Shown piece after piece: positions 1 to 15,597 of a DNA stretch of 64,000 nucleotides (the stretch's first letter is position 1; each line of letters opens with the position of its first letter). Under the pieces are notes generated by a model, which was not told the DNA's origin, made no database searches, and was given only the letters and a program-made list of their open reading frames with translations. The translations under genes and the position numbers were made by a program. The stretch covers positions 79,499 through 143,498 of the forward strand of contig CAYYEX010000003.1 in assembly GCA_964471165.1 (NCBI GenBank). The letters are read 5' to 3'. This DNA is from an uncultured Candidatus Saccharibacteria bacterium. Its GTDB lineage: Bacteria > Patescibacteriota > Minisyncoccia > Phycocordibacterales > UBA2100.

Positions 1-2
1 GA

Positions 3-233
3 GGCCTCTCGTTCCTCCCGCGGTTCGACCACGTATACCGACTCGCGCCATACGAAACGATTACGCGAAAACGCTTTGAGGAACTCACAGCCGCATTCCC
101 CGCTGTTGATTATTCGAAACTGCTCACATACGAACATACTGATGAAACTGAACAGAAGAAGGAGCTCGCCTGCGTTGGTGGTGTGTGCGATATCGACATG
201 GTGATACCATCCGACGCTCACATAAATGCCTAA
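3..233 (+). CDS. 3' end of an upstream gene, 5'-truncated by the window edge (ends ...ELACVGGVCDIDMVIPSDAHINA*)
   Basis: Frame-3 reading is open from the window start and ends at TAA 231-233, overlapping the next start. The translation looks protein-like. The family was not recognised. Confidence 0.35.
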   Translation, partial: GLSFLPRFDHVYRLAPYETITRKRFEELTAAFPAVDYSKLLTYEHTDETEQKKELACVGGVCDIDMVIPSDAHINA

Positions 234-234
234 T

Positions 235-789
235 ATGCTCTATACACGCAAAGGAGACACGGGAACGTCTGGACTTTACGGGACAAAGGAACGACTTCCG
301 AAAGATAGTCCGGTCTACGAAGCGCTCGGCACACTCGATGAGCTCAATTCATGGCTGGGCTACTGCAGAGCACACACGCTCGCACGAGATCAAACCGAGG
401 GGACGGTTGAGTGTGTTCTGTTTACGATACAGGAATGTCTTTTTATTGTGCAAGCCGAGGTGGCGGGTGCGGCGAAACGCATTTCTCAAGCGCACGTTGA
501 CGATCTCGAGCGCATTACAGCAGTGCTCGAAATGCGTATTGAAAATCCACACGCATTCGTAGTCCCCGGTTCCACTGAGCTATCCGGTATGCTCGACTAT
601 GCGCGCTCGGTCAGTCGTAGAGCAGAGCGAACCGTTGTAGCACTCGCGAGCGAGCGAGCGATTTCGCACACGACAAAAGCATATCTCAATCGCCTCTCAA
701 GCCTCCTCTACGCGACCGCTCGATACGTTGCCACCCGAGCAGAAATACAAGAAGTGGCGCCAACCTATACCGGCGCGGTATACAAGTAA
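235..789 (+). CDS. ATP:cob(I)alamin adenosyltransferase, PduO type
   Basis: The N-terminus reads MLYTRKGDTGTSGLYGTKERL, the hallmark PduO/MMAB motif (YTRxGDxGxTSL). Length of about 185 aa fits. An alternative ATG lies at 226. Confidence 0.85.
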   Translation: MLYTRKGDTGTSGLYGTKERLPKDSPVYEALGTLDELNSWLGYCRAHTLARDQTEGTVECVLFTIQECLFIVQAEVAGAAKRISQAHVDDLERITAVLEMRIENPHAFVVPGSTELSGMLDYARSVSRRAERTVVALASERAISHTTKAYLNRLSSLLYATARYVATRAEIQEVAPTYTGAVYK

Positions 790-792
790 TAT

Positions 793-1218
793 ATGAAAAC
801 AATTCGCTCACTGCAGATTTTTGGAGTTCTCGTGATTGTGTTTGGTCTTGTTATTTTCTATGCCGAACGGCCTGCGGGGCCCCTGGAAAATACTGTGCAG
901 GAGAACGTCACGACCGGCACGGCCACCGTGATGATTGAGGGCCTCTATCAAAACAAGTCGATTACGTTGTCCGGCCGCGAATCTCTCCTTGCTATATTGC
1001 GCTCACTCGATGCAACGGACCCGTCACTGCAGCTGGTAACGAAGGAGTACTCCGGGCTCGGTACACTCGTTGAAAGCATGCACGGCATTCGCAACGGAAC
1101 GGATAACAAGTACTGGCAATATACAGTGAACGGCATTATGCCGCAGGTGGGTGCGGACGCGTATATACCCGTACCAGGCGAGGTTATCGAGTGGCGCTTT
1201 TCGGAATCCAAACAATAA
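793..1218 (+). CDS. DUF4430-like (transcobalamin beta-domain-like) secreted or membrane-anchored protein
   Basis: N-terminal TM/signal segment. The C-terminal pattern ...NKYWQYTVNGIMPQVGADAYIPVPGEVIEWRF matches the DUF4430 consensus (yW.y.vNG..ga...l.dGD.I.W.y) as I remember it. Lies 3 nt downstream of the adenosyltransferase gene. Confidence 0.5.
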   Translation: MKTIRSLQIFGVLVIVFGLVIFYAERPAGPLENTVQENVTTGTATVMIEGLYQNKSITLSGRESLLAILRSLDATDPSLQLVTKEYSGLGTLVESMHGIRNGTDNKYWQYTVNGIMPQVGADAYIPVPGEVIEWRFSESKQ

Positions 1219-1220
1219 AT

Positions 1221-1757
1221 ATGATTGCACGAGTTGCTACAATTGTCGGACTAGTCTGCGTGGGCGTTGTCGGACGACTTGTGCCGCACCTGCCGAATGC
1301 TACACCTATCGCCGCAATCACCGTCACTGCGGGACGATACGTGGGGCCAACGGGGGCAATTGTTATCCCACTCGTCTCGATGTTGCTTTCGGATATCGTA
1401 ATCGGATTCTACGACTGGCGGATTCTCCTGTCTGTCTACTTCTCGATTGCATGCATGGGGCTGCTTAGTATTGTCACGCGACACTCACGCAGCGCCATAG
1501 CGACCAGCGTCGTTATTATGGGGTCTTCACTCCTGTTTTTTGTGATTACAAATGCGGCGGTTTGGGCGTTTTCCCCGTGGTTTGAAAAAAGCCTCTCCGG
1601 TCTCCTGTATTCGTACGAACTCGGTCTCCCCTTCCTTCGGAGCATGATGCTCGGCGATTTGGTGTACACGCCACTTCTGCTTGGAGCGGCCGAATGTATT
1701 GCGTTTCTTGCCGTTCTTGCGCGGCACCGCCAGATACGACCAGCATATACCACGTAG
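1221..1757 (+). CDS. small polytopic membrane protein, possibly an ECF-type substrate-capture (S) component
   Basis: About 178 aa with 5-6 hydrophobic helices. Starts 2 nt after the DUF4430-like gene. The longest ORF begins at 1191 but would overlap the upstream stop. Function is inferred from context only. Confidence 0.45.
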   Translation: MIARVATIVGLVCVGVVGRLVPHLPNATPIAAITVTAGRYVGPTGAIVIPLVSMLLSDIVIGFYDWRILLSVYFSIACMGLLSIVTRHSRSAIATSVVIMGSSLLFFVITNAAVWAFSPWFEKSLSGLLYSYELGLPFLRSMMLGDLVYTPLLLGAAECIAFLAVLARHRQIRPAYTT

Positions 1758-1813
1758 AAACACGAAATGTAAAAAGGCTGAAAAATATATAATATCTGCT
1801 AAACTACGCCGCA

Positions 1814-1835
1814 TTGCGGGATCGTCTAATGGTAG
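1814..1835 (+). repeat. 22-nt direct repeat (ttgcgggatcgtctaatggtag), a copy of the 5' end of tRNA-Gln. The second copy lies at 2130-2151 inside the tRNA gene.
   Basis: Exact 22/22 match seen in the sequence. The two copies flank the GIY-YIG ORF. The first copy is followed by two short hairpins (gtcgcc-tccac-ggcgac and ccgcc-tca-ggcgg). Confidence 0.8.
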
Positions 1836-1875
1836 TCGCCTCCACGGCGACCCGCCTCAGGCGGGGACGTAGATT

Positions 1876-2121
1876 ATGTATTACGCATACGTGCTGAAGA
1901 GTGAAAAGAATGGTCGACGCTACGTTGGCTCCACCGATGACTTGAAACGACGTTTGAAGGAACATAACTCGGGAGTCGGCGGAATGTACACGAAAAACAA
2001 TCGACCCTTCACACTGATTTACTACGAGGCATATATTTCGTATGATTTGGCTCGTAAAGCTGAAAGGTTTTATAAGTCAGGTATAGGCAGAGAGATATTG
2101 AAAGGAAAGACCGGTGAGTGA
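1876..2121 (+). CDS. GIY-YIG nuclease family protein (UPF0213/YhbQ-like, 81 aa)
   Basis: YYAYVLKSEKNGRRYVGSTDDLKRRLKEHN is a canonical GIY-YIG motif with conserved R and E. Confidence 0.75.
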   Translation: MYYAYVLKSEKNGRRYVGSTDDLKRRLKEHNSGVGGMYTKNNRPFTLIYYEAYISYDLARKAERFYKSGIGREILKGKTGE

Positions 2122-2130
2122 AGAAATTAT

Positions 2131-2201
2131 TGCGGGATCGTCTAATGGTAGGACTACTCCCTCTGGAGGAGTGTATCTTGGTTCGAGTCCAAGTCCCGCA
2201 G
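2131..2201 (+). tRNA. tRNA-Gln (anticodon CTG)
   Basis: Hand-folded cloverleaf. The acceptor stem tgcggga pairs with tcccgca. D-arm is gtct/ggac. The anticodon stem actcc/ggagt has loop ctCTGga. T-arm is cttgg-ttcgagt-ccaag. Discriminator is G. CCA is not encoded. Confidence 0.8.
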
Positions 2202-2249
2202 CACGAACGAAATGAGCCCAGCACATGAGTGAGTGCTGCGGGACTTGGA
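2187..2249 (+). other. 17-bp perfect inverted repeat (tccaagtcccgcagcac ... gtgctgcgggacttgga, 29-nt loop). It pairs the tRNA-Gln T-arm/3' acceptor strand with downstream sequence.
   Basis: Seen in the sequence. This pairing would compete with the tRNA fold. It could be a processing or attenuation structure. Confidence 0.6.
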
Positions 2250-2380
2250 GGAAAGGGGTCGGGAAAACATTTGTTTTCCCGTGGAGGAAGGCTTGGGAAA
2301 ACACCACAGGAGTGCTTCATGTTTCTAAGGCGGAGTACCGCTAAGAAACATTGGTCGCCTTGGGTTTCCCAGGTGTCCTT

Positions 2381-2395
2381 GTCCCGCAGCACGAA
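2381..2395 (+). repeat. second copy of the tRNA-Gln 3' end (gtcccgcagcacgaa); the first copy is at 2193-2207
   Basis: 15/15 direct repeat located 188 nt downstream of the tRNA. The intervening segment contains several hairpins, for example gggaaaac-attt-gttttccc. Confidence 0.7.
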
Positions 2396-2402
2396 TGAAA
2401 GA

Positions 2403-2425
2403 GCCGCCCTTGTAGGCGGCTTTTT
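2403..2425. terminator. rho-independent terminator hairpin gccgccc-ttgta-ggcggc followed by TTTTT. It is possibly bidirectional, also serving the minus-strand gene ending at 2441.
   Basis: GC stem plus T-tract on the plus strand. The reverse complement is followed by a T-rich stretch. Confidence 0.6.
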
Positions 2426-2440
2426 CAATCAATATGTGAA

Positions 2441-2986
2441 CTACTTGGCTCCTGGAATATCCTCATCGCTCGTTGGAATCTTTTTGAGGGTCTGTACTTG
2501 CTCTTCCTGGTAGGCGGCAATTTTCCACCCATCTTCCGTAGGGATAAGCAACGCCACAAACGGCACCGTGTCTGCGCTTTCCCCTACCGCCTCTTCGCTC
2601 GTCACAAGAATCACTTCACCTGTCATGAGGCGGCCTGCGCCTTGCGCCCTTGTGGTCGCTACACCAAGTCGTGCCGGCCATGGGCTCGATGTGAGTCGAC
2701 CCGGCGCGTGCTCGGGGTTCGCTTTCCAATCGCTGAGCAACTCAGCTGTTACATATGCACTGTAATTTTCTTCGATTGCCTTCGCTACAGCGGCTTTCTC
2801 GCCAATGAGCGACACGTTCTTGAGCTTACCCCCGAATGCTTCGAGTACCGCCTTGGCCCCTGTGTCCGCCCGAGATGCGCGTGCAGCAGGTCCGTAGTAC
2901 AGCCCCAGGAAGCTCGCGGCGATAATAGCGATAATAATGAGTGCAATGGAAATCCAGCGAGTGTTTTGAGTCATGCGGGCCATCAT
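2441..2986 (-). CDS. hypothetical N-terminally membrane-anchored protein (181 aa)
   Basis: The ORF has a single N-terminal hydrophobic helix (WISIALIIIAIIAASFLGLYY). No recognisable family. Confidence 0.5.
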   Translation of the reverse strand: MMARMTQNTRWISIALIIIAIIAASFLGLYYGPAARASRADTGAKAVLEAFGGKLKNVSLIGEKAAVAKAIEENYSAYVTAELLSDWKANPEHAPGRLTSSPWPARLGVATTRAQGAGRLMTGEVILVTSEEAVGESADTVPFVALLIPTEDGWKIAAYQEEQVQTLKKIPTSDEDIPGAK

Positions 2987-3029
2987 ATCCCGTTGACCGG
3001 CAAATTCAATCTTTTATTTCATCTATACT

Positions 3030-3962
3030 TCACTCCTCCTTCACGGGGCATGTTCTGCGATCGCGTCCGAGCGACACTTTCGATTCGTGTACGGCAAACA
3101 CACCCTGCTCGTTAAACGTTACCCGCACCGTGAGCCCTGTTGATACTGCCTCGTTCCAATACTGGTCGAATATAAAGTTCCCGAGCGAATAGTAGATATG
3201 TTTGCCCTTATAGATTTCAGACGCCTGGATGACGTGCGGATGTGCGCCTATCACGAGCTCCGCCCCCGCATCAATAAATTTGTGCGCCAGCGAGATTTCG
3301 CGCTCGGTAGCGGGTTTGTATTCGTCGCCCCAATGAGCGAACACCACGGGGATGCGTTTCTTCTCACGCGCATCGGTAATTTGATTGATAGCGAGCAGTG
3401 GTGTCGAGCCCTCGTCGAACTCGTTGTACCCAATGAGTGTCAGTGGCACGCCATTGCTTTCGACTTCGGAAACGGAATATCCACCCGGTTCTCCGAAATA
3501 ACCCACCTTTGCTGCCTCGAGCGCGCGCACTGTAGAGTCCACTCCTTCCTCTCCAAAGTTATAAATATGATTGTTTCCAAGCGAAACTACGCGCACATTC
3601 TGTCGGTGCAAAAGCGGCGCAACATACTCGGGAAATGTGAAAACAAAATTGTCGTGAGAGCCGACTGCGGAGCCAACACTTTTAGATGGATAGGGTGTAA
3701 TTGGCCCCTCAAGATTCCCCACTGTTAAATCAGCAGCTGCCAATTCTGTGCTTATGCACGAAAAAATGAAGTCGGAACCGTAGGATTGCATCGCTACACG
3801 AATTGAACGATCAAACATCATATCGCCTATGAAAAGCACTTCTGTTGTTGGCGCAGCTGCTCGTGCTGGGGCTGCGATATATGAAATCTCCTGAACGAGC
3901 ATGCCGTAGAAGCCTGCCAATATTCCGGCAGTAATCGTCACGAGCTCTTGGAAGCGCTCCAT
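3030..3962 (-). CDS. CapA-family metallophosphoesterase (poly-gamma-glutamate capsule biosynthesis CapA-like)
   Basis: Motifs LGNNHI, GAHPHV, YSLGNF and HWGDEY are typical of the CapA/PGA_cap family. N-terminal TM anchor. Confidence 0.8.
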   Translation of the reverse strand: MERFQELVTITAGILAGFYGMLVQEISYIAAPARAAAPTTEVLFIGDMMFDRSIRVAMQSYGSDFIFSCISTELAAADLTVGNLEGPITPYPSKSVGSAVGSHDNFVFTFPEYVAPLLHRQNVRVVSLGNNHIYNFGEEGVDSTVRALEAAKVGYFGEPGGYSVSEVESNGVPLTLIGYNEFDEGSTPLLAINQITDAREKKRIPVVFAHWGDEYKPATEREISLAHKFIDAGAELVIGAHPHVIQASEIYKGKHIYYSLGNFIFDQYWNEAVSTGLTVRVTFNEQGVFAVHESKVSLGRDRRTCPVKEE

Positions 3963-3980
3963 TGTGAGTAAGTATATCGC

Positions 3981-4694
3981 TTAGCGTTTCTCAATGTGCG
4001 CAATAATGGCCTGATGGTCGGATACTCCGTCTTGCAGACGAACAGCGGTCACTTCGTAGCCTCGCGTTGAAAACAGTCCGTCGACCACGTACGGCAACGG
4101 CCCGGCACGGTGAAGTAGCGGGTCGATGGTGGTCGTGTATTCAACCGGAATGTTGTCTGTATAGCGTGCAGCGATTCGAGAAAACACATCACCACCGCGG
4201 GGTGCATTAAAATCGCCGCACAGTACAAACTCCCCAGCAGCCGAGAGCACATCCAACATGGCGGGGAGGTCGCGTTGCTGTTCTGCGTTCGTGCCGCCGT
4301 TTGGTGCCCAAGTAAAATGAGTCGTGATAACACGGAATGTTATTCCATCATGCTCCACGTCGCACGAAAGTAACGCGAGGTGTTGAAGTCGAAGAGCTCG
4401 GGTTGTTCGTGCGTCGGTCTCATTTCCGAGATAGTAGTTCTTGGAGGTGGCTGAAATTGTGCGTGAAAAAATACCGACGCCAACTATTGATATATCATCG
4501 GTGTGTCCCGTTTCTTTCGGGTGCAGTCCAAACGGAGCAAACTCACAATTCATTACGAGAGCTTGCTTGAACTGTTCAATATCGTCTTCTTTGAGCTCCT
4601 GCAGACACACCGCGTCGGGGCGAACGCTCTGTAGAAACGGAATAACCCTATCAAGATGCTTCGAGCGCTCAATGTTGAGCGAAACGAGCTTCAT
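3981..4694 (-). CDS. endonuclease/exonuclease/phosphatase (EEP) family protein
   Basis: N-terminal LNIER...CLQEL and C-terminal GDFNAPRGG...SDHQAI are EEP catalytic motifs. Confidence 0.8.
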   Translation of the reverse strand: MKLVSLNIERSKHLDRVIPFLQSVRPDAVCLQELKEDDIEQFKQALVMNCEFAPFGLHPKETGHTDDISIVGVGIFSRTISATSKNYYLGNETDARTTRALRLQHLALLSCDVEHDGITFRVITTHFTWAPNGGTNAEQQRDLPAMLDVLSAAGEFVLCGDFNAPRGGDVFSRIAARYTDNIPVEYTTTIDPLLHRAGPLPYVVDGLFSTRGYEVTAVRLQDGVSDHQAIIAHIEKR

Positions 4695-4703
4695 ATTGTC
4701 ATG

Positions 4704-6371
4704 CTATTTTTCGCCACTCCTCTCGAGAGACGCCTTCAAAAAAGCAGTAAAGAGCGGGTGCGGTGAGAGCGGTCGAGCCTTCAGCTCAGGATGTGCCTGA
4801 GTACCGAGCATAAACGGATGCACACTCACTGGCAGTTCTGCAATCTCCATCAAATGACCATCAGGCGAACGTCCGGAGAATACAAGCCCTGCGCCCTCGA
4901 GCTGTTCAACATAGTCGGGATTCACTTCGTAGCGGTGGCGGTGGCGTTCTGAGATTGACGTTGCACCGTAGGCGTCTGCGGCAATTGTGCCCGCAACCAA
5001 ATCACATTCGTAGCCACCAAGACGCATCGAGCCGCCGTAGTCTTTGCGCGCCAACTTTTCAATTTGTTCGGGCAAGATAGCAATGATTGGATGCGGCGTG
5101 TCTTTGTTAATTTCCGTTGTGTTTGCGTCTTTGAGACCGACAACGTTCCGTGCATATTCAACGGTCATCAGCTGCATGCCGTAGCACAAACCGAAGTACG
5201 GCACCTTATTCTCGCGACAGAATTGAATGGCGTTAATTTTGCCCTCGATACCCGTTTCGCCAAATCCTCCAGGAACGATGATACCGTCATAGCCCGAGAG
5301 CTCAGAAACTTTTGCGGGGTCGGTCTGGTAGGTCTTGGCATTGAGCCAATCAATCTTTGCCTTTACACCTAAATGCGCCGCGGAGTATTTAATCGCTTCG
5401 ATAACAGAGAGGTATGCGTCGGAAAGAACGAAGTCCCCTGTATCAAAATACTTTCCAACAATGCCAATCTTCACAACCTTGGAGCCGTTGTGCATGCGCG
5501 CGGAGAGATTTTTCCACTCCGACAAGTCGGACTCTTGTTTCGCTTCTATATTCAGCTCTCGCAAAATAATGTCGGAGAGTCCATCGGCTTCAAAGTTGAG
5601 CGGCACGTCGTAAATAGAATCAACGTCTGGGGCCGAAATAATGTGTGCCGCTGGGACTGAGCACGAAATCGAAAGTTTTTCTTTGCGCTTCTGATCGAGT
5701 GGCATGTTTGCGCGCGCAATCAAAATATCGGGCTGCACACCATATGAGTTCAGTTGCCGAATCGCGTTCTGGGTCGGTTTGGTTTTCATCTCCCCGATTG
5801 TGCCTGGTACTGGCATGTAGGAGACCATTGCAAAAAGCACATCGCCGTAGTGGCGCAGGTGCATCACGCGGGCCGCGTCTATAAAGAGAGCATTTTGAAA
5901 GTCTCCGATGGTGCCCCCGATTTCAACAACTGTTACATCTGACTTTGCGAGCTCTGCCGCTTTTTCAAAGCGCTGAATGATTTCGTCGCGCACGTGCGGC
6001 ACGGCTTCGACGCATTTTCCGCCGTAACCCAAGTTGCGCTCGCGCTCGATGACATCTTTATAAATCATTCCGGAGGTCATGTAGTCTTCCGGGCCCAAGT
6101 CGCGTCCCAAGAATCGTTCGTAGTTACCCATGTCCTGGTCTGTTTCCAAGCCACTCTCAAGTACGAACACTTCCCCGTGCTCTGTTGGGTTCATGGTGCC
6201 CGCATCAACATTGAGATACGGATCTATTTTTACGAGATTGACGGAGAGCCCGCGGGCAGCGAGAATTTTTCCAATTGAAGCAGTAGTAATTCCCTTGCCG
6301 ACGCCGGACATTACTCCGCCCACGACGAAAATATACTTATGCCCTGCGTGCGCACGCTGCATGGGGTCCAC
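4704..6371 (-). CDS. pyrG: CTP synthase
   Basis: 555 aa. N-terminal KYIFVVGGVMSGVGKGITTASIG synthetase motif plus a C-terminal glutamine amidotransferase domain (GLCYGMQL, HPE). Confidence 0.95.
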   Translation of the reverse strand: MDPMQRAHAGHKYIFVVGGVMSGVGKGITTASIGKILAARGLSVNLVKIDPYLNVDAGTMNPTEHGEVFVLESGLETDQDMGNYERFLGRDLGPEDYMTSGMIYKDVIERERNLGYGGKCVEAVPHVRDEIIQRFEKAAELAKSDVTVVEIGGTIGDFQNALFIDAARVMHLRHYGDVLFAMVSYMPVPGTIGEMKTKPTQNAIRQLNSYGVQPDILIARANMPLDQKRKEKLSISCSVPAAHIISAPDVDSIYDVPLNFEADGLSDIILRELNIEAKQESDLSEWKNLSARMHNGSKVVKIGIVGKYFDTGDFVLSDAYLSVIEAIKYSAAHLGVKAKIDWLNAKTYQTDPAKVSELSGYDGIIVPGGFGETGIEGKINAIQFCRENKVPYFGLCYGMQLMTVEYARNVVGLKDANTTEINKDTPHPIIAILPEQIEKLARKDYGGSMRLGGYECDLVAGTIAADAYGATSISERHRHRYEVNPDYVEQLEGAGLVFSGRSPDGHLMEIAELPVSVHPFMLGTQAHPELKARPLSPHPLFTAFLKASLERSGEK

Positions 6372-6551
6372 TCTAACATACGAAGCGGCAGTACCTGCAG
6401 TTTAAGTCTGGGGGAAAGCCACAAATCGGAGACTGCCTGTACTGGATGCAGTTCGAGGCACGGGAAAGCGGCGCCTGAGCCGTACTGAGCAGTACGGTGA
6501 GGGCGACCGCAGGGTTCTCGTAAAGAAGAAATGCGCCAGTACAGGCAGTCG
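6372..6551 (-). promoter_or_regulatory. structured 180-nt pyrG leader / ftsX-pyrG intergenic region with nested inverted repeats
   Basis: A perfect 15-nt inverted repeat (gactgcctgtactgg at 6431-6445 and ccagtacaggcagtc at 6536-6550) brackets an 18-nt hairpin ccgtactg-ag-cagtacgg at 6480-6497. A further hairpin gcagtacctgcag lies at 6388-6400. Confidence 0.4.
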
Positions 6552-7481
6552 TTACATCTTCAAGTAGCGGCGGACTGCAAGGAAGCTGGACAGTGCTCCG
6601 ATTGCGGTCCCTGCGCCTAGCAGGCTCACAAACATGACCGGGAAGAACTCATTGTAGTACGTAAATACGTTAAAGGAGCCCAAGAAGCGCTCCGAGCCAG
6701 GCCCAAGCCAGAGCGTTACGGGATAGAGAATAGCTATCACAATTACGGTTGAAACGATGCCGTAGAGGATGCCGGTTATCATGAATGGTCCACGGACATA
6801 CCAGTGCCCTGCCCCAACGAGATTCATGACCCCTATCTCGTCTCGCGCGGTGTAGATTGCCAAGCGAATGGTGGTAAACGCGCTCAGGAACGACGAAATG
6901 GCAAGGATGATGGTGATTGCTATACCCATCTTTTGCGATGTCTGGATGATGTTGGTTAAGCGGTCGATTGCTGCCTTGTTCTGGAAAAAGTTCACTTTGT
7001 CGATAAATGTGGCTGAGCCAGTTTGACCCGCAGCCTGATCCTCAAGGTATTTTGCGATTGATTCGTATTGCGAAGTTTCCTTGGCGCGGATTTCGATTGA
7101 GGCCCCGAGCGGGTTGTCGCCAAGCTCCTCGAGTGCCTGGAGGGTAAGCTGGTCGTTCTTGTGTCGCTCCTTGAACTCATTGAGTGCATCTTCGCGGCTC
7201 ACGTATTTCACTGATGCGACCTCTGGAAGCGCCTTGAGGGAGTTCTGTACTGTAGAAATCTGGTCAAGTGATGCGCTCGGTGTAAAGTACACGGTCACGT
7301 CTACCTTGTTGGTGAGCTGCTGAAGCGTGGAATCGAGCGCAGCCAGCGAAATCATCAACACCGCAAAGATTGCCAGTGTGATGGTGAGGTTGAGTATCGC
7401 TGAAAGCGAAATGAATCCATTGCGAACAAATCCGGTTATGCCGTACCGGGTCACTCGTTTCATGCTGAGCCAAAGAGCCAT
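6552..7481 (-). CDS. ftsX: cell division permease FtsX
   Basis: 309 aa with the FtsX topology: an N-terminal TM, a large extracytoplasmic loop and three C-terminal TMs. Lies directly downstream of ftsE. Confidence 0.85.
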   Translation of the reverse strand: MALWLSMKRVTRYGITGFVRNGFISLSAILNLTITLAIFAVLMISLAALDSTLQQLTNKVDVTVYFTPSASLDQISTVQNSLKALPEVASVKYVSREDALNEFKERHKNDQLTLQALEELGDNPLGASIEIRAKETSQYESIAKYLEDQAAGQTGSATFIDKVNFFQNKAAIDRLTNIIQTSQKMGIAITIILAISSFLSAFTTIRLAIYTARDEIGVMNLVGAGHWYVRGPFMITGILYGIVSTVIVIAILYPVTLWLGPGSERFLGSFNVFTYYNEFFPVMFVSLLGAGTAIGALSSFLAVRRYLKM

Positions 7482-7489
7482 AAGAATTT

Positions 7490-7517
7490 AGGTTATAGGT
7501 TATAGGTTATAGGTGGT
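7490..7517. repeat. heptamer microsatellite (AGGTTAT) x3.5 immediately upstream of the ftsX start
   Basis: Reads aggttataggttataggttataggtggt in the sequence. Confidence 0.8.
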
Positions 7518-7578
7518 AGTACACGCATAGAATATTTTGAATCGGACTATTCCCTATCACCTATTCGCTGTAACCTCA

Positions 7579-8310
7579 TCATAATACGTATTTACCCTGC
7601 TTATCGTCTCGCACGACTCTTCCCTGATCCATCGTAACTACGCGGCGACCAACCGAGTCCACGATTGATTTATTGTGTGTAGTAAGCAGCACCGTAGTAC
7701 CAAGGTCGTTGATTTTTTTCAAAATCTCCACAACGTCGTGTGCATTGATTGGGTCGAGGTTGCCTGTTGGTTCATCAGCAATCAATACATCCGGCTGATT
7801 GACGATTGCACGTGCAATCGCGATACGCTGCTGTTCTCCACCAGAGAGCTCGTGCGGGAAGTTCCAGATTTTGTCTGCAAGTCCTACGAGGTCGAGCACG
7901 TGTGGAACGTCGGCCTGAATGTCTTCGTCGGACTTTCCTGCAACCTCAAGTGCGAATGCAATATTTTCGTATACGTTTTTTGTCGGCAACAAACGAAAAT
8001 CCTGGAAAATGGTGCCTATGTTGCGACGCATGCGTAGGAGTTCTTTATCGGAGAGTTCGGTAATCGGTTTGGAGCCAAAATAAACTGCGCCCTCGGTCGG
8101 AAACACTTCTGCAAAGAGCATTTTGAGTAGCGTCGTCTTCCCGGCCCCTGAATGACCCACAATAGATACAAACTCCCCCGGTTCAATACCGAGCGTAACG
8201 TCTGCGACCGCCGGGGCGACGCCCGTAGCGTATATTTTGGTCACTTTGTCGAAATAGATCATGGGAAATTGCATTACCGTAATGCGCACTCGCGCGGCCG
8301 TCTCGGACAA
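7579..8310 (-). CDS. ftsE: cell division ATP-binding protein FtsE
   Basis: Walker A GHSGAGKTT, ABC signature LSGGEQQR and Walker B LIADEPT. The true start may be the internal ATG at 8262 (MIYFDKVTKIY). Confidence 0.85.
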   Translation of the reverse strand: MSETAARVRITVMQFPMIYFDKVTKIYATGVAPAVADVTLGIEPGEFVSIVGHSGAGKTTLLKMLFAEVFPTEGAVYFGSKPITELSDKELLRMRRNIGTIFQDFRLLPTKNVYENIAFALEVAGKSDEDIQADVPHVLDLVGLADKIWNFPHELSGGEQQRIAIARAIVNQPDVLIADEPTGNLDPINAHDVVEILKKINDLGTTVLLTTHNKSIVDSVGRRVVTMDQGRVVRDDKQGKYVL

Positions 8311-8391
8311 TCCAGAGAAACCGAAGAAACTGTCGAATCATTATACCTGAGCCACGAGGCTCTCCAAACCGCGGCTTAACACAGCCGAGCA

Positions 8392-9276
8392 TTACTCCGT
8401 AAGCTTCTTTTCCTCGTCGATGAAGGACTGGATGTCTCCTTCGAGGACTTTTTCCACATCTCTGCGTTCGTGTTCGGTACGGTGGTCCTTCACGAGCTGG
8501 TACGGATGAAGCACGTATGAGCGAATTTGGCTGCCCCATTCGATTTTTGTTGTTGCCGCAACCGAGAGCCCGCGTGATTCTGCGATTTGCGCATCTTCCC
8601 GCAGCTTAAAGAGCTTGCCGCGCAACAATTCGATTGCTTTTTCGCGATTCTGAGCCTGGGAGCGCTCGCTCGTTACTTGGACAGCGAGCCCTGTTGGGAT
8701 ATGCGTCATGCGAACGGCGGTATCACGTTTGTTCACGTTTTGCCCGCCCGGACCACCTGAGCGCGCAACAGATACGTCGAGCTCTTTATCCGGAATCTGC
8801 AGCTCTCCCGCATCTGGGAGCCGTGGCAGTACTTCGACGAGTGAAAACGATGTTTGTCGCTTACCTGCGGAGTTAAACGGCGACATGCGAACCAACCGGT
8901 GCACGCCTGCCTCATGCTTGAGCGTGCCATAGGCGCCGGCGCCTACTACCTCAAACGAAATACTCCGATAGCCGCCCATCGTGTTTGCATTTGATGAGAG
9001 CGCGAGCACTTTCCAGCCCTTCGATGAGACGAATTTCGTATACATTTCATACAGGATGCGAGAAAAATCTTCGGCGTCGTCTCCTCCCGCTCCGGAGACA
9101 ATGGTGACGAGCGCATCTGACTTGTCGTATGCCCCTTTGCCCTCAAGTTTTGCCTTAAGCTCCTGGTACTCTTTGAGCACCTCTTGTGCGTGGTCTTTGT
9201 TCGACCAAAAATCGGCCGCCCCCATCAACGTTTCGATTTCTGCGATACGCGCCTGTATTGCTTCTTTACCTTCCAT
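8392..9276 (-). CDS. prfB: peptide chain release factor 2 (short form, no programmed frameshift)
   Basis: GGQ motif (SGGPGGQNVNK) and the RF2-specific SPF motif. An in-frame TGA lies about 69 nt upstream of the ATG, and a promoter motif abuts the start, so no frameshifted N-terminal extension is present. Confidence 0.9.
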   Translation of the reverse strand: MEGKEAIQARIAEIETLMGAADFWSNKDHAQEVLKEYQELKAKLEGKGAYDKSDALVTIVSGAGGDDAEDFSRILYEMYTKFVSSKGWKVLALSSNANTMGGYRSISFEVVGAGAYGTLKHEAGVHRLVRMSPFNSAGKRQTSFSLVEVLPRLPDAGELQIPDKELDVSVARSGGPGGQNVNKRDTAVRMTHIPTGLAVQVTSERSQAQNREKAIELLRGKLFKLREDAQIAESRGLSVAATTKIEWGSQIRSYVLHPYQLVKDHRTEHERRDVEKVLEGDIQSFIDEEKKLTE

Positions 9277-9283
9277 CCCGGCA

Positions 9284-9300
9284 GTATACCCCGTGAGATA
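9284..9300 (-). promoter_or_regulatory. copy of the 17-nt motif TATCTCACGGGGTATAC, oriented toward prfB. It ends 7 nt before the ATG.
   Basis: Exact motif on the minus strand. One of seven copies in the window. Confidence 0.5.
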
Positions 9301-9338
9301 TTTTGTGAATCTATCGCAACGAATCGAAAGATTGTGTT

Positions 9339-9355
9339 TATCTCACGGGGTATAC
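9339..9355 (+). promoter_or_regulatory. copy of the 17-nt motif TATCTCACGGGGTATAC, oriented toward the tRNA-Thr genes. Divergent from the prfB copy.
   Basis: Exact motif 64 nt upstream of tRNA-Thr(CGT). Confidence 0.5.
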
Positions 9356-9418
9356 AGTCGCATTGATTGAAAAAGCGAGCGGAATAGCGTATTCTCTCTC
9401 TGTTTCGTCTCAGTTTTC

Positions 9419-9494
9419 GCCACCTTAGCTCAGTTGGTAGAGCATCCCCTTCGTAAGGGGAGGGTCCCCGGTTCAAATCCGGGAGGTGGCTCCA
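9419..9494 (+). tRNA. tRNA-Thr (anticodon CGT), CCA encoded
   Basis: Acceptor stem gccacct pairs with aggtggc. Anticodon stem cccc/gggg with loop ttCGTaa. T-loop is ggttcaaatcc. The 3' end reads tCCA. Confidence 0.8.
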
Positions 9495-9549
9495 GGTTGT
9501 ACGCAAAAAATTTTTGTGTGGGCCTCTGTGTGTCGATGGTTTAGTTGGT

Positions 9550-9567
9550 GTAGTGCCGATGTAGCTC
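9550..9567 (+). repeat. 18-nt direct repeat gtagtgccgatgtagctc. This is a copy of the leader plus first 13 nt of tRNA-Thr(GGT); the second copy is at 9663-9680.
   Basis: Exact 18/18 match lying 113 nt upstream of the real tRNA 5' end. The intervening sequence contains the hairpin ctccgg-tgtaa-ccggag. Confidence 0.8.
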
Positions 9568-9667
9568 CCAGCTTCGCTCGTATGTGCTCGAGCTTCGCAG
9601 GACAAGCAGTAGGACTTTTCACTACCGCTTGCACTTCGAAGCTCCGGTGTAACCGGAGCGTAGTAGT

Positions 9668-9743
9668 GCCGATGTAGCTCAGTTGGTAGAGCACGTCCTT
9701 GGTAAGGACGAGGTCTCCGGTTCAATCCCGGACATCGGCTCCA
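9668..9743 (+). tRNA. tRNA-Thr (anticodon GGT), CCA encoded
   Basis: Acceptor stem gccgatg pairs with catcggc. Anticodon stem cgtcc/ggacg with loop ttGGTaa. T-arm is ctccggttcaatcccggac. The 3' end reads tCCA. Confidence 0.8.
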
Positions 9744-9747
9744 GGTT

Positions 9748-10407
9748 TTAGACGATGTGGTAGTCGCGCAGAGATTCGATTGTTGCTGTCAGCGACTCTT
9801 CTGTCAGCGACTCCGGAGTGATTGAGAGTCCCGCGAAGAGTTTCTGTTCAATTTCTACAAGAAATCCGCAATTCTTTTCGAACCGCTCGTCGTTTTCTCC
9901 ATAGTCTGAACGGGCGCGTGCCTTATAGCGCGCGTGGCCCTCGCACAAACGCGTTTCCATTGCAGTTATTCCGTAGGGTGCCGTGCGCTGGTCGGCGTAC
10001 TCGAGTATTTGTAGTTCGGTTGAACCTTCGCGCAGCACAGTCTCAGCCTTCGAAAAGCCCATCGCCTCAATAAGTCCGATAACCCTGTCTGACGCTCCAA
10101 TCTCCTTTGCTATCGCCGAGGTTGCCGTGTGCTCATCAAGGCCGTAGCGCTCCCCACAGTCTTTTTTTACCTCTTGCCAGTACTCAATACCTTTCTCTCC
10201 ATAAAATTCTGGCGGGAATTGCGAAAAGTCGGCTTTCATAATGTTGCCCATGTCATGAAGCAGTCCTGCACGGGTAACCGTGTCAGCATCTGCCTTCAGC
10301 TCACTCGCCATAGCGCGAGCGAGGGCGGCAACCCGCATTTGATGCTGCCGAAGGTTGGGCATAATTCTGTATTTTTCGTACGCCTGCCATGCTGTCATAC
10401 AGGGCAT
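9748..10407 (-). CDS. HD-domain phosphohydrolase
   Basis: H...LLHDMG motif (the HD signature) in a 219-aa protein. Confidence 0.6.
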   Translation of the reverse strand: MPCMTAWQAYEKYRIMPNLRQHQMRVAALARAMASELKADADTVTRAGLLHDMGNIMKADFSQFPPEFYGEKGIEYWQEVKKDCGERYGLDEHTATSAIAKEIGASDRVIGLIEAMGFSKAETVLREGSTELQILEYADQRTAPYGITAMETRLCEGHARYKARARSDYGENDERFEKNCGFLVEIEQKLFAGLSITPESLTEESLTATIESLRDYHIV

Positions 10408-10443
10408 GGTAACAGGGTAATTCTCAAAACCAATAGGAGGTTA

Positions 10444-10459
10444 CACCCCACGAGATAAA
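10444..10459 (-). promoter_or_regulatory. degenerate inverted copy of the 17-nt motif (minus strand TTTATCTCGTGGGGTGT) upstream of the HD-domain gene
   Basis: Matches the motif at roughly 14/17 positions. Divergent from the exact copy at 10493-10509. Confidence 0.35.
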
Positions 10460-10492
10460 CACCCCCGTCGTTCCGCATCATCTATTGCAGCC

Positions 10493-10509
10493 TATCTCAC
10501 GGGGTATAC
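10493..10509 (+). promoter_or_regulatory. copy of the 17-nt motif TATCTCACGGGGTATAC. It ends 7 nt before the ATG of the iron-permease-family gene.
   Basis: Exact motif. The TATACT element occupies a -10-like position for a near-leaderless transcript. Confidence 0.5.
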
Positions 10510-10516
10510 TAGTGGC

Positions 10517-10891
10517 ATGCATGAAATCTTTCGTCGAATTGCCCAAGAAGCAAGTCGCGCCATGGGAGCACCGTGGGCCTTTGCGCTCGCGTGTTTTATA
10601 ACACTCTTATGGGCACTCTCTGGACCATACTTCGGGTATTCCGACACCTGGCAGTTGGTAATTAACACCGCAACAACCGTACTCACCTTCCTTGCGGTCT
10701 TTCTCATTCAAAACACACAGAACCGCGATGCGCATGCCATACACTTGAAACTCGACGAGCTCATCAAAGCGCAGACCGAGGCACGCAACCAACTCATCGA
10801 TGTTGAAGACCTCTCCGATGAGCAGCTCGAAGTCCTCCAAAAGGAGTTTGTTCAATTCCGAGATGACTCAAACGCAGCCGAGCTCAAGTAG
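10517..10891 (+). CDS. low-affinity iron permease family protein (PF04120-like small 2-TM protein)
   Basis: SDTWQLVINTATTVLTFLAVFLIQNTQNRD...HLKLDELIKA closely matches the bacterial Fet4-like family signature as I remember it. Confidence 0.7.
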   Translation: MHEIFRRIAQEASRAMGAPWAFALACFITLLWALSGPYFGYSDTWQLVINTATTVLTFLAVFLIQNTQNRDAHAIHLKLDELIKAQTEARNQLIDVEDLSDEQLEVLQKEFVQFRDDSNAAELK

Positions 10892-10902
10892 CGCTTCAAC
10901 AA

Positions 10903-11433
10903 CTACTTGGTGAGTTCGTTTATCTTTGCCTCCACTTCCGAGATATTCATCGGTCCGTGTTGGTGGTAGAACACCTCGCCTCGGTCGTTGATAAACAACG
11001 TCTCAGGCATCGCATAGCCCTCAATAGATTTATAGAACGCATCGTCAGGATCAAGGAGGAACAGCATACTCTCTCCCACGGCGAGTGCGTCGGTAAACGG
11101 TTTTGCAACCTGCACCGACTCGGCACGATTTGGTGCCAAAATCTGGATGCGGTCTCCGTATTTCTTCTTCAGCGTGGTCAGATTGTTTATTTCGTCTGCG
11201 CAGTACGTGCACCACGTTGCCCACGAATGCACAACGAGAATTTCGCGTTTAAATTGCGATAGTCGCACGTCGGCACCGCTGTAGTCTTTCAGCACAAGTT
11301 CGTATTCTTGTGTGAAGTTCGTAATGCCGGAGCGCGGATGATAGCGCCAGTAGAAAAGTCCGAGCGCAATCAGCACAATGGCAGCGGCAGCAAGCGCGAT
11401 ACGTGTGGCTCGTGACTGTGGCATTACTCGCAT
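10903..11433 (-). CDS. TlpA/redoxin-family thiol-disulfide oxidoreductase, membrane-anchored
   Basis: N-terminal TM. Thioredoxin-fold CxxC motif in SWATWCTYCADE. Confidence 0.75.
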   Translation of the reverse strand: MRVMPQSRATRIALAAAAIVLIALGLFYWRYHPRSGITNFTQEYELVLKDYSGADVRLSQFKREILVVHSWATWCTYCADEINNLTTLKKKYGDRIQILAPNRAESVQVAKPFTDALAVGESMLFLLDPDDAFYKSIEGYAMPETLFINDRGEVFYHQHGPMNISEVEAKINELTK

Positions 11434-11434
11434 A

Positions 11435-13162
11435 TTAACCCGTCCAGTTGAAGAGGAGAATCGAGAAGTCGGCCAAGTTTACCGTATTGTCCTCGTTGAT
11501 ATCGGCATCGGGGTCATCCTCGTTCCAATGCGTGAGCAAAATCGAGAAGTCGACCAAGTTTACTTTTCCGTCTTTATTGATGTCGGAGCGATTGTCGTTA
11601 TCGACCTGTCGCGATGGAGCCTCCCCCACTCCCACGTACACAGGCGCGCTGTATTCACTCGAGGCAGATGGGGTAACTGTTTTTACTTTAATATCATACG
11701 TGCCACGTTTTAAATCTTTTGCGGGGATTGTAAACTCCCAGACTCCACCAGTGCCTGCAGCATTCTCTAGTGAGGTAGACGCTGTGTACTCCTTCGCTAC
11801 CCCCGCTGTGCCACTTGCCGGCACATCGCGAACAATGAGGTGAACGATGGTTCCCGGCACTCCAACGCCGGAGACACGCACACTCTCGGCCAGAGCAACC
11901 GATTCGGAATCGGGCGAAATCGTTGGTGAAAGCAGAACTCCGGTAATACCGTTTACCGTACCGGCATTCAACGTGAGCGTCGAAGAAAAACGTGACGACT
12001 TTCGTGCTCTTGCGTCAGTTGCAAAACTCACGAACGAATAGGTGCCTCGCTCAAGCGCTGAAATTGTTGTGCTAAATGCGCCGCTGCTTCCCGCAAGCAC
12101 GTTGGCCTGCTGCGTGCCGTCTTTCAATATTGTTACCGAGCTGTTTGCTGGTGCAAATCCGGAAATCTTTACCGTTGACTGGAACAGCAGTGAGCTGCCG
12201 CCCGCAAATGAGCCCGCTCCTCCAGAACCACCTGCCCCACCCGCTCCCGTAGACGCAACCCCCGGCGTATTGCCATCCGATGTCGTAACCGTTGGCGTGG
12301 TTGCGAGTGAAAACGTGTGCACGTAGTCGCTCTGTGCTGTTGCTCCGAATGTGTCGCGACAACGGATGTAGTACGAATAGGTTCCCCCGTCAGCGAGGCC
12401 GCTCACAACGCCGTAATGGAGTTGCTGGCCAACCGCTGAAAACGTGTTTGGCATTGATGCATACGTGATTCCAGAGGATGTGGCGTATTTGCAGGTCGCC
12501 ATAACATTTGTTTGAAATGAGAGCTCAACCATGGCGCTTCCAGCCGGAATTGTTCCTGTCGGGAGCGCATTTAATACCTGTGGCGCATTATCGGTGACGA
12601 CAGTCGTAAGCGTAATCGGGGTCACAACCACAAACATTGCTTTGGCGTCGTCGATTGGGGTTGCGCCGTTTGCCGTGTTCACACGAACGCGGTACGAACC
12701 AGGGAGCGCTGGGTTGACGGGCGATACATCTCCAACAACTTGGTGAGTCGCATTCGTGCCAAGAATAACGCGCACTGATTCATTTGCTGCAATGCCACTA
12801 CCCGATGAAAGCGCAATCGTGATTGAACCCGAGGCACCGCTTACAACCGTGACGCCGTCTTCGCTCGCACTCGGTAACGCTGCAAGGTTGTGTTCCGCAT
12901 ACGGTCCGCCGTTGGAGACTGCAACATCAACGTCGGTAAAATCAAATCCTCCGGGAATACTGAAGGCATCTTCGGGAGTAATGGTAATCGTTCCCGATGC
13001 GGGCACTGCGTTTCTGACCGTGAACGTAACAATATGGTTCGCGGCACTCGAAGGCACAGAAGTTGAAATGAGATCCGAAATCGGTGACATGTATCCCGCC
13101 TGTACAGTATGCAAAGCAATGAGCGGTAGCACGAACGTTATTACAACAAGAAAGCGCCGCAT
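11435..13162 (-). CDS. secreted Ig-like/beta-sandwich repeat protein with a C-terminal type-I dockerin domain
   Basis: Signal peptide MRRFLVVITFVLPLIALHTVQA. The ORF extends to 13429, but the start was chosen at 13162 just after the upstream stop. The C-terminal tandem DINKDGKVNLVDFSILL ... DINEDNTVNLADFSILLFNWTG forms canonical dockerin Ca-binding repeats. Confidence 0.7.
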   Translation of the reverse strand: MRRFLVVITFVLPLIALHTVQAGYMSPISDLISTSVPSSAANHIVTFTVRNAVPASGTITITPEDAFSIPGGFDFTDVDVAVSNGGPYAEHNLAALPSASEDGVTVVSGASGSITIALSSGSGIAANESVRVILGTNATHQVVGDVSPVNPALPGSYRVRVNTANGATPIDDAKAMFVVVTPITLTTVVTDNAPQVLNALPTGTIPAGSAMVELSFQTNVMATCKYATSSGITYASMPNTFSAVGQQLHYGVVSGLADGGTYSYYIRCRDTFGATAQSDYVHTFSLATTPTVTTSDGNTPGVASTGAGGAGGSGGAGSFAGGSSLLFQSTVKISGFAPANSSVTILKDGTQQANVLAGSSGAFSTTISALERGTYSFVSFATDARARKSSRFSSTLTLNAGTVNGITGVLLSPTISPDSESVALAESVRVSGVGVPGTIVHLIVRDVPASGTAGVAKEYTASTSLENAAGTGGVWEFTIPAKDLKRGTYDIKVKTVTPSASSEYSAPVYVGVGEAPSRQVDNDNRSDINKDGKVNLVDFSILLTHWNEDDPDADINEDNTVNLADFSILLFNWTG

Positions 13163-15559: not shown

Positions 15560-15597
15560 CATGCAACATCCCCGCTACACTGCGGGGATGTTGCATG
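15560..15597. other. perfect 16-bp hairpin (catgcaacatccccgc-tacact-gcggggatgttgcatg) in the intergenic region between two surface-protein genes
   Basis: Seen in the sequence. Lies between the stop at 15618 and the next start at 15511. It may be a terminator or attenuator without a clear T-tract, or an operator. Confidence 0.6.

Follow-up and report, generated by a model that had tools for sequence, protein, structure and literature searches.

That tRNA (transfer RNA) genes serve as insertion targets, that GIY-YIG nucleases can act as homing endonucleases and that one of them, SegB, is linked to tRNA genes is already known. SegB, a GIY-YIG protein of the phages T4 and T6, cuts within tRNA genes, shows a statistical association with them and drives the recombination-dependent duplication of tRNA-plus-segB segments (PMC13096335). 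We examined a 64,000-nucleotide (nt) stretch of DNA (the window) from an uncultured Candidatus Saccharibacteria bacterium (contig CAYYEX010000003.1, positions 79,499 to 143,498 of the forward strand), in which a GIY-YIG gene likewise stands among tRNA genes. This locus is best read as a cassette, composed of an invariant double hairpin, the gene for a minimal GIY-YIG protein of 81 amino acids (aa) of the Slx1/UPF0213 type and a complete tRNA-Gln gene, which sits in the D-loop-coding part of a tRNA-Gln gene. SegB is its closest tested analogue, although it comes from phages, extends C-terminally past the catalytic domain, is not nested in a tRNA gene and has no hairpin module; the window protein belongs to the Slx1-like branch, consists of a catalytic domain of 81 aa and is encoded on a bacterial chromosome. 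A C-terminally truncated variant of SegB is not toxic (PMC13096335).

The prokaryotic Slx1-like branch, a minimal form of the fold without the C-terminal Asn, holds the UPF0213 proteins (Dunin-Horkawicz et al. 2006, PMC1564403), and Slx1 is a structure-selective nuclease (PMC7017083). The UPF0213 proteins (YazA, YhbQ; Protein Data Bank (PDB) entries 1zg2 and 1ywl) resemble the window protein in family, in size, in the Tyr/Tyr/Gly/Arg/His/Glu set and in having no auxiliary domain. They have been regarded as nucleases of unknown function that probably serve in repair or housekeeping, and neither nesting in tRNA genes nor a hairpin is mentioned for them in PMC1564403 or in the literature searched. 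Genomic islands and prophages integrated at tRNA genes share with the cassette the tRNA target, the partial duplicate and the restoration of function by element-borne sequence (PMC9897764). The cassette differs from them in that it has no recombinase, spans less than 600 bp, is inserted in the D-loop and carries a whole tRNA. Repetitive extragenic palindromes (REPs) with their RAYT proteins, and the IS200/IS605 elements, likewise combine a small nuclease gene with flanking conserved GC-rich palindromes that covary with the protein subfamily; they depend on HUH (Y1) enzymes and have many dispersed hairpin copies, unlike the cassette, with its GIY-YIG enzyme and hairpins confined to tRNA loops beside the open reading frame (ORF). 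In the mitochondrial atp6 gene of Allomyces, a free-standing endonuclease ORF is said to have been inserted together with a duplicated gene end; as in the cassette, the nuclease ORF reportedly brings a replacement gene part and the displaced original end becomes a pseudogene. GC-rich double-hairpin elements of mitochondria are considered mobile, insert into genes and stay in the transcripts (PMC2800124). These fungal mitochondrial cases concern organellar protein-coding genes, in contrast to the window hairpin, which is invariant, lies exactly at a tRNA junction and is not dispersed in the 64 kb. A survey of the full-text literature, the 2006 superfamily analysis and Rfam found no minimal Slx1-like GIY-YIG gene nested in a bacterial tRNA D-loop with a junction hairpin and a replacement tRNA, and the combination, widespread in candidate phyla radiation (CPR) bacteria and Bacteroidota, seems to be undescribed.

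The locus lies on the plus strand of the window. Its left end is the displaced 5′ part of a tRNA-Gln gene (1813-1835), which comprises the leader bases AT and tRNA nt 1-21, that is, the 5′ strand of the acceptor stem, the 5′ strand of the D-stem and the D-loop. This fragment is an exact 23-nt repeat of 2129-2151, one base longer than the 22-nt repeat reported in the initial annotation of this DNA, and the chance expectation within 1.1 kb is about 1e-8 for a 23-nt match and about 3e-5 for a 17-nt match (our own arithmetic). A GC-rich double hairpin unit of 30 nt (1836-1865) comes next, inserted precisely at the boundary of tRNA nt 21 and 22 in the D-loop, and is followed in turn by GAC (1866-1868), which corresponds to tRNA nt 22-24 in the 3′ strand of the D-stem and is where the tRNA homology stops. 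The intact tRNA reads GGTAG and then GAC at 2147-2154; the upstream copy is tRNA nt 1-24 with a precise 30-nt insert at 21/22, and the ORF starts 7 nt further on. The sequence GGGGAC before the ORF also resembles a ribosome-binding site. The double hairpin, the most conserved non-coding feature of the locus, was absent from the initial annotation, which had correctly placed a free-standing GIY-YIG ORF between the two 5′ copies (1876-2121, 81 aa; Pfam PF01541, E 4e-16). The intact tRNA-Gln(CUG) gene (2131-2202; found by ARAGORN, Rfam tRNA 56.6 bits, E 2.8e-10) starts 9 nt past the stop codon of the ORF.

For comparison, we took from public genomes and metagenomes a close set of homologues with 72-87% identity to the ORF. 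All of them whose contig extends past the ORF lie 5-44 nt 5′ of a same-strand tRNA-Gln gene (CUG or UUG). The order fragment, hairpin, GAC, ORF, tRNA-Gln recurs amid differing neighbour genes (L003/L008, L004, L009, L088-L099 and L168-L187), and the fragment, the double hairpin and GGAC precede the ORF wherever enough upstream sequence was fetched. The 5′ fragment measures 21-22 nt in eleven distinct loci and 5 nt in L090, and the gapped scaffold L181 has neither fragment nor hairpin. The locus is a member of a conserved cassette family in Parcubacteria and not a private scar; going by the names of the sources of its closest homologues, the organism would be a Kaiserbacteria-like parcubacterium. 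The proposal that it records an insertion or a recombination event at a tRNA gene involving the nuclease gene holds in this respect, but the event is not idiosyncratic, as every close homologue shares the architecture; the nuclease gene was present in all relatives compared, and structural polymorphism was found between two of them (L171 and L172, see below). The refuting condition named in the initial annotation, the same fragments with neither nuclease gene nor polymorphism, therefore does not speak against a mobile origin.

We then examined the double hairpin. Its first hairpin (1836-1850) reads TCGCC-TCCAC-GGCGA and its second (1851-1865) CCCGCC-TCA-GGCGGG; together they fold at -19.1 kcal/mol (z = -3.4). 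Over the eleven distinct loci, the mean pairwise identity is 99% for the hairpin stems and junction (25 nt), 81% for the tRNA 5′ fragment (21 nt), 34% for the 25 nt 5′ of the fragment and 32% for the four-fold degenerate sites of the ORF, and the GGAC after the hairpin is invariant (11/11 loci). Since the stems are 99% identical at loci whose synonymous sites are saturated, the part 5′ of the ORF is a maintained cis element rather than neutral debris. Within the subfamily of the window, variation is confined to the hairpin loops; distant subfamilies have other stem sequences, which are again self-complementary. Invariant stems with variation only in the loops point to the sequence-specific recognition of a hairpin-forming site, and not to folding alone. 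The hairpin is probably a sequence-specific cis element, which could be the recognition site of the nuclease or a terminus of the element. The 3′ strand of the second hairpin overlaps a Shine-Dalgarno-like GGGGA 7-10 nt before the ATG and so covers the likely ribosome-binding site, by which it may restrain translation of the nuclease. A second copy of the hairpin lies 3′ of the cassette tRNA in L089, L092, L095 and L168-L171. In the 64 kb of the window, the hairpin pattern occurs once, even with three mismatches allowed, and the dispersal typical of REPs or of miniature inverted-repeat transposable elements (MITEs) was not seen: in the fetched loci, the hairpins adjoin the GIY-YIG ORF or sit in adjacent tRNA remnants. 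A comparison of folding as RNA and as DNA was uninformative (10 G·T plus T·G mismatches and 9 A·C plus C·A mismatches in hairpins near ORFs), and a single long hairpin in place of the two is a weak alternative, its outer pair being Watson-Crick at 5/10 loci, a wobble at 1 and mismatched at 4 (our own tally).

The ORF itself is predicted to encode a bare GIY-YIG catalytic domain of the prokaryotic Slx1-like or UPF0213 (YazA, YhbQ) type. Residues 1-68 align with positions 1-70 of the 78 positions of PF01541, the closest solved relatives are the UPF0213 proteins BH0048 (PDB 1zg2, E 1.2e-8) and EF2693 (1ywl, E 1.1e-7), and the model for group I intron endonucleases in NCBIfam matches residues 5-32 only, at 25.5 bits with a cut-off of 56. 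Among 21 homologues, Y16, R26, H30 and E63 are invariant and Y5, G18 and E51 are conserved in at least 90%; the window protein has them all. Between family members, the proportion of nonsynonymous differences (pN) is 0.09-0.25 and that of synonymous differences (pS) 0.70-1.07. The ORF and the hairpin stems are thus under strong purifying selection over a long divergence. A search at E <= 1e-3 gave 6,944 representatives of 50%-identity clusters, and most of the best 150 of these 6,944 are 80-130 aa long. Individual copies depart from this pattern: L095 (26-274) has a TAG at codon 10 of an otherwise intact ORF, its orthologue in L092 being intact, and in L096 / P0024 (Zambryskibacteria) an Asp replaces the conserved Gly of the YIG motif, so that copies can evidently decay.

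The relation between the cassette and the surrounding tRNA fragments was examined in L168, where the order is fragment, hairpin, ORF, complete tRNA-Gln, second hairpin and tRNA nt 22-72. The downstream half ends in TCCCGCAG, matching the upstream fragment with its acceptor sequence TGCGGGA, and the acceptor stem of the cassette tRNA differs (TGCCGGA/TCCGGCA). A resident tRNA-Gln gene has thus been split at 21/22 by a cassette with its own tRNA. The halves (2440-2461 and 2879-2943) lie about 430 nt apart and have perfect acceptor, anticodon and T stems, with a compensated pair in the D-stem (ATCT in the 5′ fragment, GGAT in the 3′ half) and an Rfam score of 28.7 bits for the 3′ part. Fuller 3′ equivalents with nt 22-72 are present in L168-L171, L089 and L024, and in L024 (a tRNA-Arg locus of Bacteroidota) and L108 the cassette lies between direct repeats of 34 and 47 nt, respectively, that include the hairpin. 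L171 and L172, metagenomic contigs of the same locus with an identical protein, differ in that L172 is without the right-hand hairpin and the resident 3′ half. The short form seen in the window could derive from a deletion of the L172 type.

By comparison with these relatives, the 5′ fragment of the window and its 3′ repeat most plausibly belong to a single resident tRNA gene, now interrupted, whose ends flank the cassette; 2375-2405 would be its eroded 3′ end. This second direct copy of the tRNA 3′ end (plus strand) comprises nt 57-72 and 16 nt of trailer and matches 2187-2218 at 28/32 positions with one gap; the repeat finder gave 2375-2400, which local alignment stretched to 2375-2405. The 3′ repeat noted previously before the terminator is therefore real and longer than claimed. 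The resident 3′ half of the window is without nt 22-56: neither these nor a right-hand hairpin were detectable in 2250-2374, where the local alignment score was reached by 122/500 shuffles. On the minus strand, at 2233-2249, the tRNA 3′ end (nt 58-72) recurs in inverted orientation together with 2 bases of the trailer and forms a perfect 17-bp stem with 2188-2204, as proposed initially with coordinates off by one. The minimum-energy fold of 2131-2252 takes this stem over the acceptor and T arms of the tRNA (-55 kcal/mol, z = -4.6); in a long precursor, it would prevail over these arms. It had been suggested that the hairpin could be a processing or attenuation device; this idea was not borne out, as no relative has a counterpart of the inverted repeat. 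Being unconserved, it is taken as rearrangement debris, most likely an inverted partial duplication that would have arisen during break repair. The spacer that follows (2252-2374) is strongly self-complementary (-62.3 kcal/mol, z = -4.7), with hairpins at 2260-2281 and 2319-2351, and resembled neither the fetched loci nor any other part of the window nor the hairpin/tRNA model. A rho-independent terminator (plus strand, 2402-2425; hairpin 2402-2421 followed by a T-run, -22 kcal/mol, z = -7.5) closes the locus and is common to the convergent minus-strand gene at 2441-2974.

An assembly artefact was ruled out for the 5′ and 3′ repeats, which persist in a second assembly of the same sample. This assembly, from Logan, matches the window base for base over 1-2164 and from 2273 onwards; at k=31, one of its contigs stops at 2164, in the anticodon loop, and the next begins at 2273. 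The interval 2165-2272, which contains the inverted repeat, is spanned only by the 173-kb contig of the European Nucleotide Archive (ENA) and so rests on one assembly.

We considered whether the cassette might be removed at the RNA level, as a group I intron, as an archaeal-type intron or from a split tRNA. The insertions lie in tRNA loops, the resident halves of L168 keep all four stems, including the compensated D-stem pair, and the two quasi-palindromic hairpins of L168 might base-pair in the manner of the complementary leaders of split tRNAs. However, the 3′ half in the window, lacking nt 22-56, leaves nothing functional to splice, and a complete tRNA always stands alongside; in the window this tRNA is uninterrupted and the insertion lies in the D-loop, not in the anticodon loop. 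In addition, Rfam found only tRNA, and no ribozyme, at E <= 1 over 1-12000 and at E <= 0.1 in 8 related loci, and many interrupted copies have mismatched acceptor strands (L089, L093). Such an intervening sequence is thus very improbable, and the initial view that the intact tRNA argues against an intron is upheld. Removal of the bacterial split-tRNA kind is excluded for the window by the eroded 3′ half; in relatives such as L168, it would be conceivable.

Integration by an integrase at the tRNA gene, with the repeats as attL and attR, has a general precedent, since tRNA genes are common integration sites at which partial tRNA duplicates are left (PMC9897764). Here, we found no integrase or recombinase gene within 5 kb on either side, and only 316 bp, with the nuclease ORF as the sole gene, separate the 5′ repeats. 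Moreover, it is the 5′ 21 nt that are duplicated, the insertion point is in the D-loop, and both 5′ and 3′ fragments are present, all of which make this explanation barely credible.

The association with tRNA genes extends beyond the close set. A one-genome-per-species scan and a metagenome scan together gave 145 unique homologue loci, which span Patescibacteria, Bacteroidota, Omnitrophota, Planctomycetota and other groups. A same-strand tRNA gene lies within 150 nt of the ORF in 77 of the 145 (55 after the ORF and 22 before it), and an opposite-strand one in none, where about 2.9 would be expected, given how dense tRNA genes are in the rest of these loci; the ORF is thus physically linked to its presumed target, a trait of homing endonucleases. 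Each protein subfamily goes with its own tRNA isotype (Gln, Arg, Ser, Asn, Leu, Pro and others), and two cassettes occur at some loci. Across the family, the ORF is as a rule surrounded by duplicated tRNA fragments, and GC-rich hairpins lie in the loop-coding parts of partial or extra tRNAs, namely in the D-loop at 17 or 21/22, in the anticodon loop at 35/36 (Ser group) and in the T-loop at 56/57. In phage and plasmid collections, all matches were below 60% identity, and the annotated ones were generic GIY-YIG nuclease genes, one of them yazA; of the tblastn matches in phage records, many were to unannotated entries.

Taken together, these observations argue that the locus is probably a selfish, tRNA-targeting nuclease cassette, which supplies a replacement tRNA and uses a tRNA promoter. 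The nuclease would break the DNA within a tRNA gene or its hairpin, or beside one of them, and recombinational repair from a cassette-bearing copy would bring the hairpin, the ORF and the 5′ part of the tRNA (or the whole tRNA) into the break; pairing would involve the 21-nt fragment at the left end and tRNA nt 22-72 at the right end. Such repair would duplicate parts of the tRNA and leave the host with a functional one, which would explain both the duplicated tRNA parts and the constant presence of a functional tRNA. The displaced 5′ end would stay behind its promoter, the tRNA after the ORF would be the working replacement, and the 17-bp inverted repeat and the structured spacer would be local debris of break and repair. 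As to expression, a putative -10-like box, TATAAT (plus strand, 1788-1793), lies about 20 nt 5′ of the tRNA fragment; it was read by eye and was missed by a consensus promoter scan, and A/T-rich -10-like boxes lie 10-25 nt 5′ of the fragment in all relatives. The strict same-strand rule, the spacers of 4-20 nt and the TATAAT box suggest that the ORF is transcribed from a captured tRNA promoter. The ORF would then lack its own promoter, and a single transcript would span fragment, hairpin, ORF and tRNA, from which ordinary tRNA processing would release the tRNA.

Several points weigh against this reading. Synonymous sites are saturated between family members, so the copies are old and recent transfer would be conjecture. 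The 81-aa protein has no Pfam domain beyond GIY-YIG, and in particular no DNA-binding domain, which characterised homing endonucleases use to recognise their site; prokaryotic Slx1-like proteins have also been judged to be mostly vertical housekeeping nucleases (Dunin-Horkawicz et al. 2006, PMC1564403). The central tRNA of the window shares 2 leader and 16 trailer bases with the flanking fragments, which a local duplication explains no less well than the import of a foreign tRNA; the working copy and the fragments hence derive from the same gene, by local duplication or by homing between homologous alleles, and not from a distant donor. Most seriously, no cassette-free allele of this or a related locus was found: in the search for an empty site, homologues of the upstream DUF6580 gene were at most 59% identical, and exact-protein look-ups of both flanking genes matched only this genome. 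Finally, the restored tRNA still holds the would-be target in its D-loop, which leaves the immunity of the carrier allele unexplained.

The age of the copies, together with the strong constraint on the ORF and the hairpin stems, would also fit a domesticated operon, in which the nuclease gene is a vertical passenger of the tRNA-Gln unit, the fragment and the hairpin form a structured 5′ leader and the tRNA is matured from the same precursor. The leader could serve in mRNA stabilisation, in masking the ribosome-binding site or in binding the nuclease for autoregulation, and the repeats would be relics of an ancient event, with mobility long ceased. In line with this, the ORF and the tRNA invariably share a strand and the spacers between them leave no room for a promoter, the 3′ strand of the second hairpin overlaps the Shine-Dalgarno-like GGGGA, and prokaryotic Slx1-like proteins have been judged mostly vertical, some being fused to the tRNA D-loop methyltransferase TrmH (PMC1564403). 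However, a leader does not account for second hairpins 3′ of the tRNA without a following ORF, and the stems are invariant rather than compensated, which points to sequence-specific recognition. Split tRNA halves, nested hairpin insertions, indels between strains and a nonsense allele are the traces of a selfish element; further, subfamilies occur at different tRNA isotypes, and some loci have two cassettes. We therefore regard domestication as unlikely.

A different role for the hairpins is assumed if the cassette is a transposon-like element, whose GIY-YIG enzyme would be a structure-specific nuclease and cut its own double hairpin, as a cruciform or as a single-stranded fold, so that the hairpins would be the termini. 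Staggered cuts followed by fill-in would yield direct repeats that contain the hairpin, and solo hairpins would be footprints or miniature derivatives. The family is related to Slx1, a structure-selective nuclease (PMC7017083; PMC1564403). Two hairpin units bound some cassettes, with repeats of 34-47 nt that include the hairpin (L024, L108, L168); solo hairpins occur in otherwise identical tRNA copies (L068, L075, L046), interrupted copies have gathered extra ones in their D-, anticodon and T-loops (L048, L089, L127), and covarying inverted repeats bracket the ORF in tRNA-less relatives. The stems, moreover, are invariant within a subfamily, with compensated variants between subfamilies. Against this, the hairpin is single-copy in the window, unlike dispersed miniature elements, and the window has no detectable right-hand hairpin. 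No GIY-YIG enzyme is known to carry out transposition, and a hydrolytic nuclease alone cannot join DNA. An element of this kind is accordingly quite unlikely. A broader proposal, that the 81-aa protein and the hairpin make up a previously unrecognised kind of mobile element, is put forward tentatively and is itself doubtful. Its minimal nuclease, specific for both structure and sequence, would act on the hairpins at its ends and transfer or copy the cassette, with its whole replacement tRNA gene, into loop-coding parts of tRNA genes. Such an element would give the widespread UPF0213 proteins a first concrete biological role and make the cassettes vehicles of tRNA gene turnover in CPR bacteria and Bacteroidota.

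If the selfish-cassette reading is correct, it would give a role to a very large family of minimal GIY-YIG proteins, for which structures have been solved but no function is known. The tRNA genes of genome-reduced CPR bacteria would then be interrupted, replaced and possibly exchanged by a selfish cassette, which would be hard to lose because a working tRNA is on board. For annotation, it would mean that tRNA fragments, hairpin-bearing pseudo-tRNAs and short 'hypothetical' ORFs across them share one cause. The unusually small nuclease (81 aa) and the defined 30-nt candidate recognition hairpin form a directly testable pair.

Further variants of the cassette were seen in relatives. In L003, the genome of the closest homologue, a second GIY-YIG ORF (5796-6047, within 5680-6160) lies 2.5 kb off, with the T-loop-like debris GTTCGAATC and GATTCGAATCC on either side and no tRNA found by ARAGORN. 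The FtsX neighbourhood of L168-L177 holds, 3′ of the first cassette, another GIY-YIG ORF, which is 80 aa long and belongs to a different subfamily; the strains vary in a 122-aa ORF between the two and in whether a PPDK or a DEAD-box helicase gene is the next one. In the long forms (L168 2759-2855, L178 2750-2851, L089, L093, L098 and L099), a leader/trailer helix of 9-14 bp lengthens the acceptor stem of the cassette tRNA; its sequence is locus-specific yet complementary, for example TTGGCGTTAAAC/GTTTGACGCCAA and TCGTGCGCGATGC/GCATCGCGCACGA, and the window is without such a helix.

Among the homologues without a tRNA, the ORF is bracketed by inverted repeats in L011, L013, L017, L021, L023, L028, L031, L035 and L041, likewise in L044, L045, L052 and L066, and also in L012, L025, L032, L047 and L061. 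One arm precedes the start codon by 4-10 nt and the other overlaps the stop codon, for example ATCCCGTTAGAGA ... TCTCTAACGGGAT, and in L012 the arms form a 19-bp pair, CCCCCACCTATCAAGACTT / AAGTCTTGATAGGTGGGGG. The arms vary by subfamily but always match each other, and L041, L052 and L066 have extra solo copies close by. At the Bacteroidota tRNA-Arg loci (L024 2441-3000, L059 2432-2491, L068 2733-2834, L075 2301-2918 and L046 2315-2815), the same logic is seen with other hairpins: tRNA-Arg copies equal the neighbouring intact tRNA apart from a hairpin insert of 28-107 nt at D-loop position 17, and a perfect 20-nt palindrome, CCTGCCTGCCGGCAGGCAGG, lies in the D-loop of two different tRNA-Arg genes in two genera.

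In the 64 kb of the window, there are no further copies of the ORF, the hairpin or the spacer. The neighbours of the locus encode a ribonucleotide reductase (RNR), Cob adenosyltransferase, DUF4430, DUF6580, an unknown 177-aa protein, PGA_cap, Exo_endo_phos and CTP synthase. The upstream run (1-1757), with a class II-type ribonucleotide reductase, Cob(I)alamin adenosyltransferase, DUF4430 and DUF6580, resembles a B12-handling cluster. The source annotation also places a 49-aa minus-strand ORF over the tRNA-Gln gene (2077-2226; L001 3202-3351), which is almost certainly spurious. The longest perfect hairpin in the window lies elsewhere, at 15560-15597, where a perfect 16-bp stem encloses a 6-nt loop (CATGCAACATCCCCGC TACACT GCGGGGATGTTGCATG).

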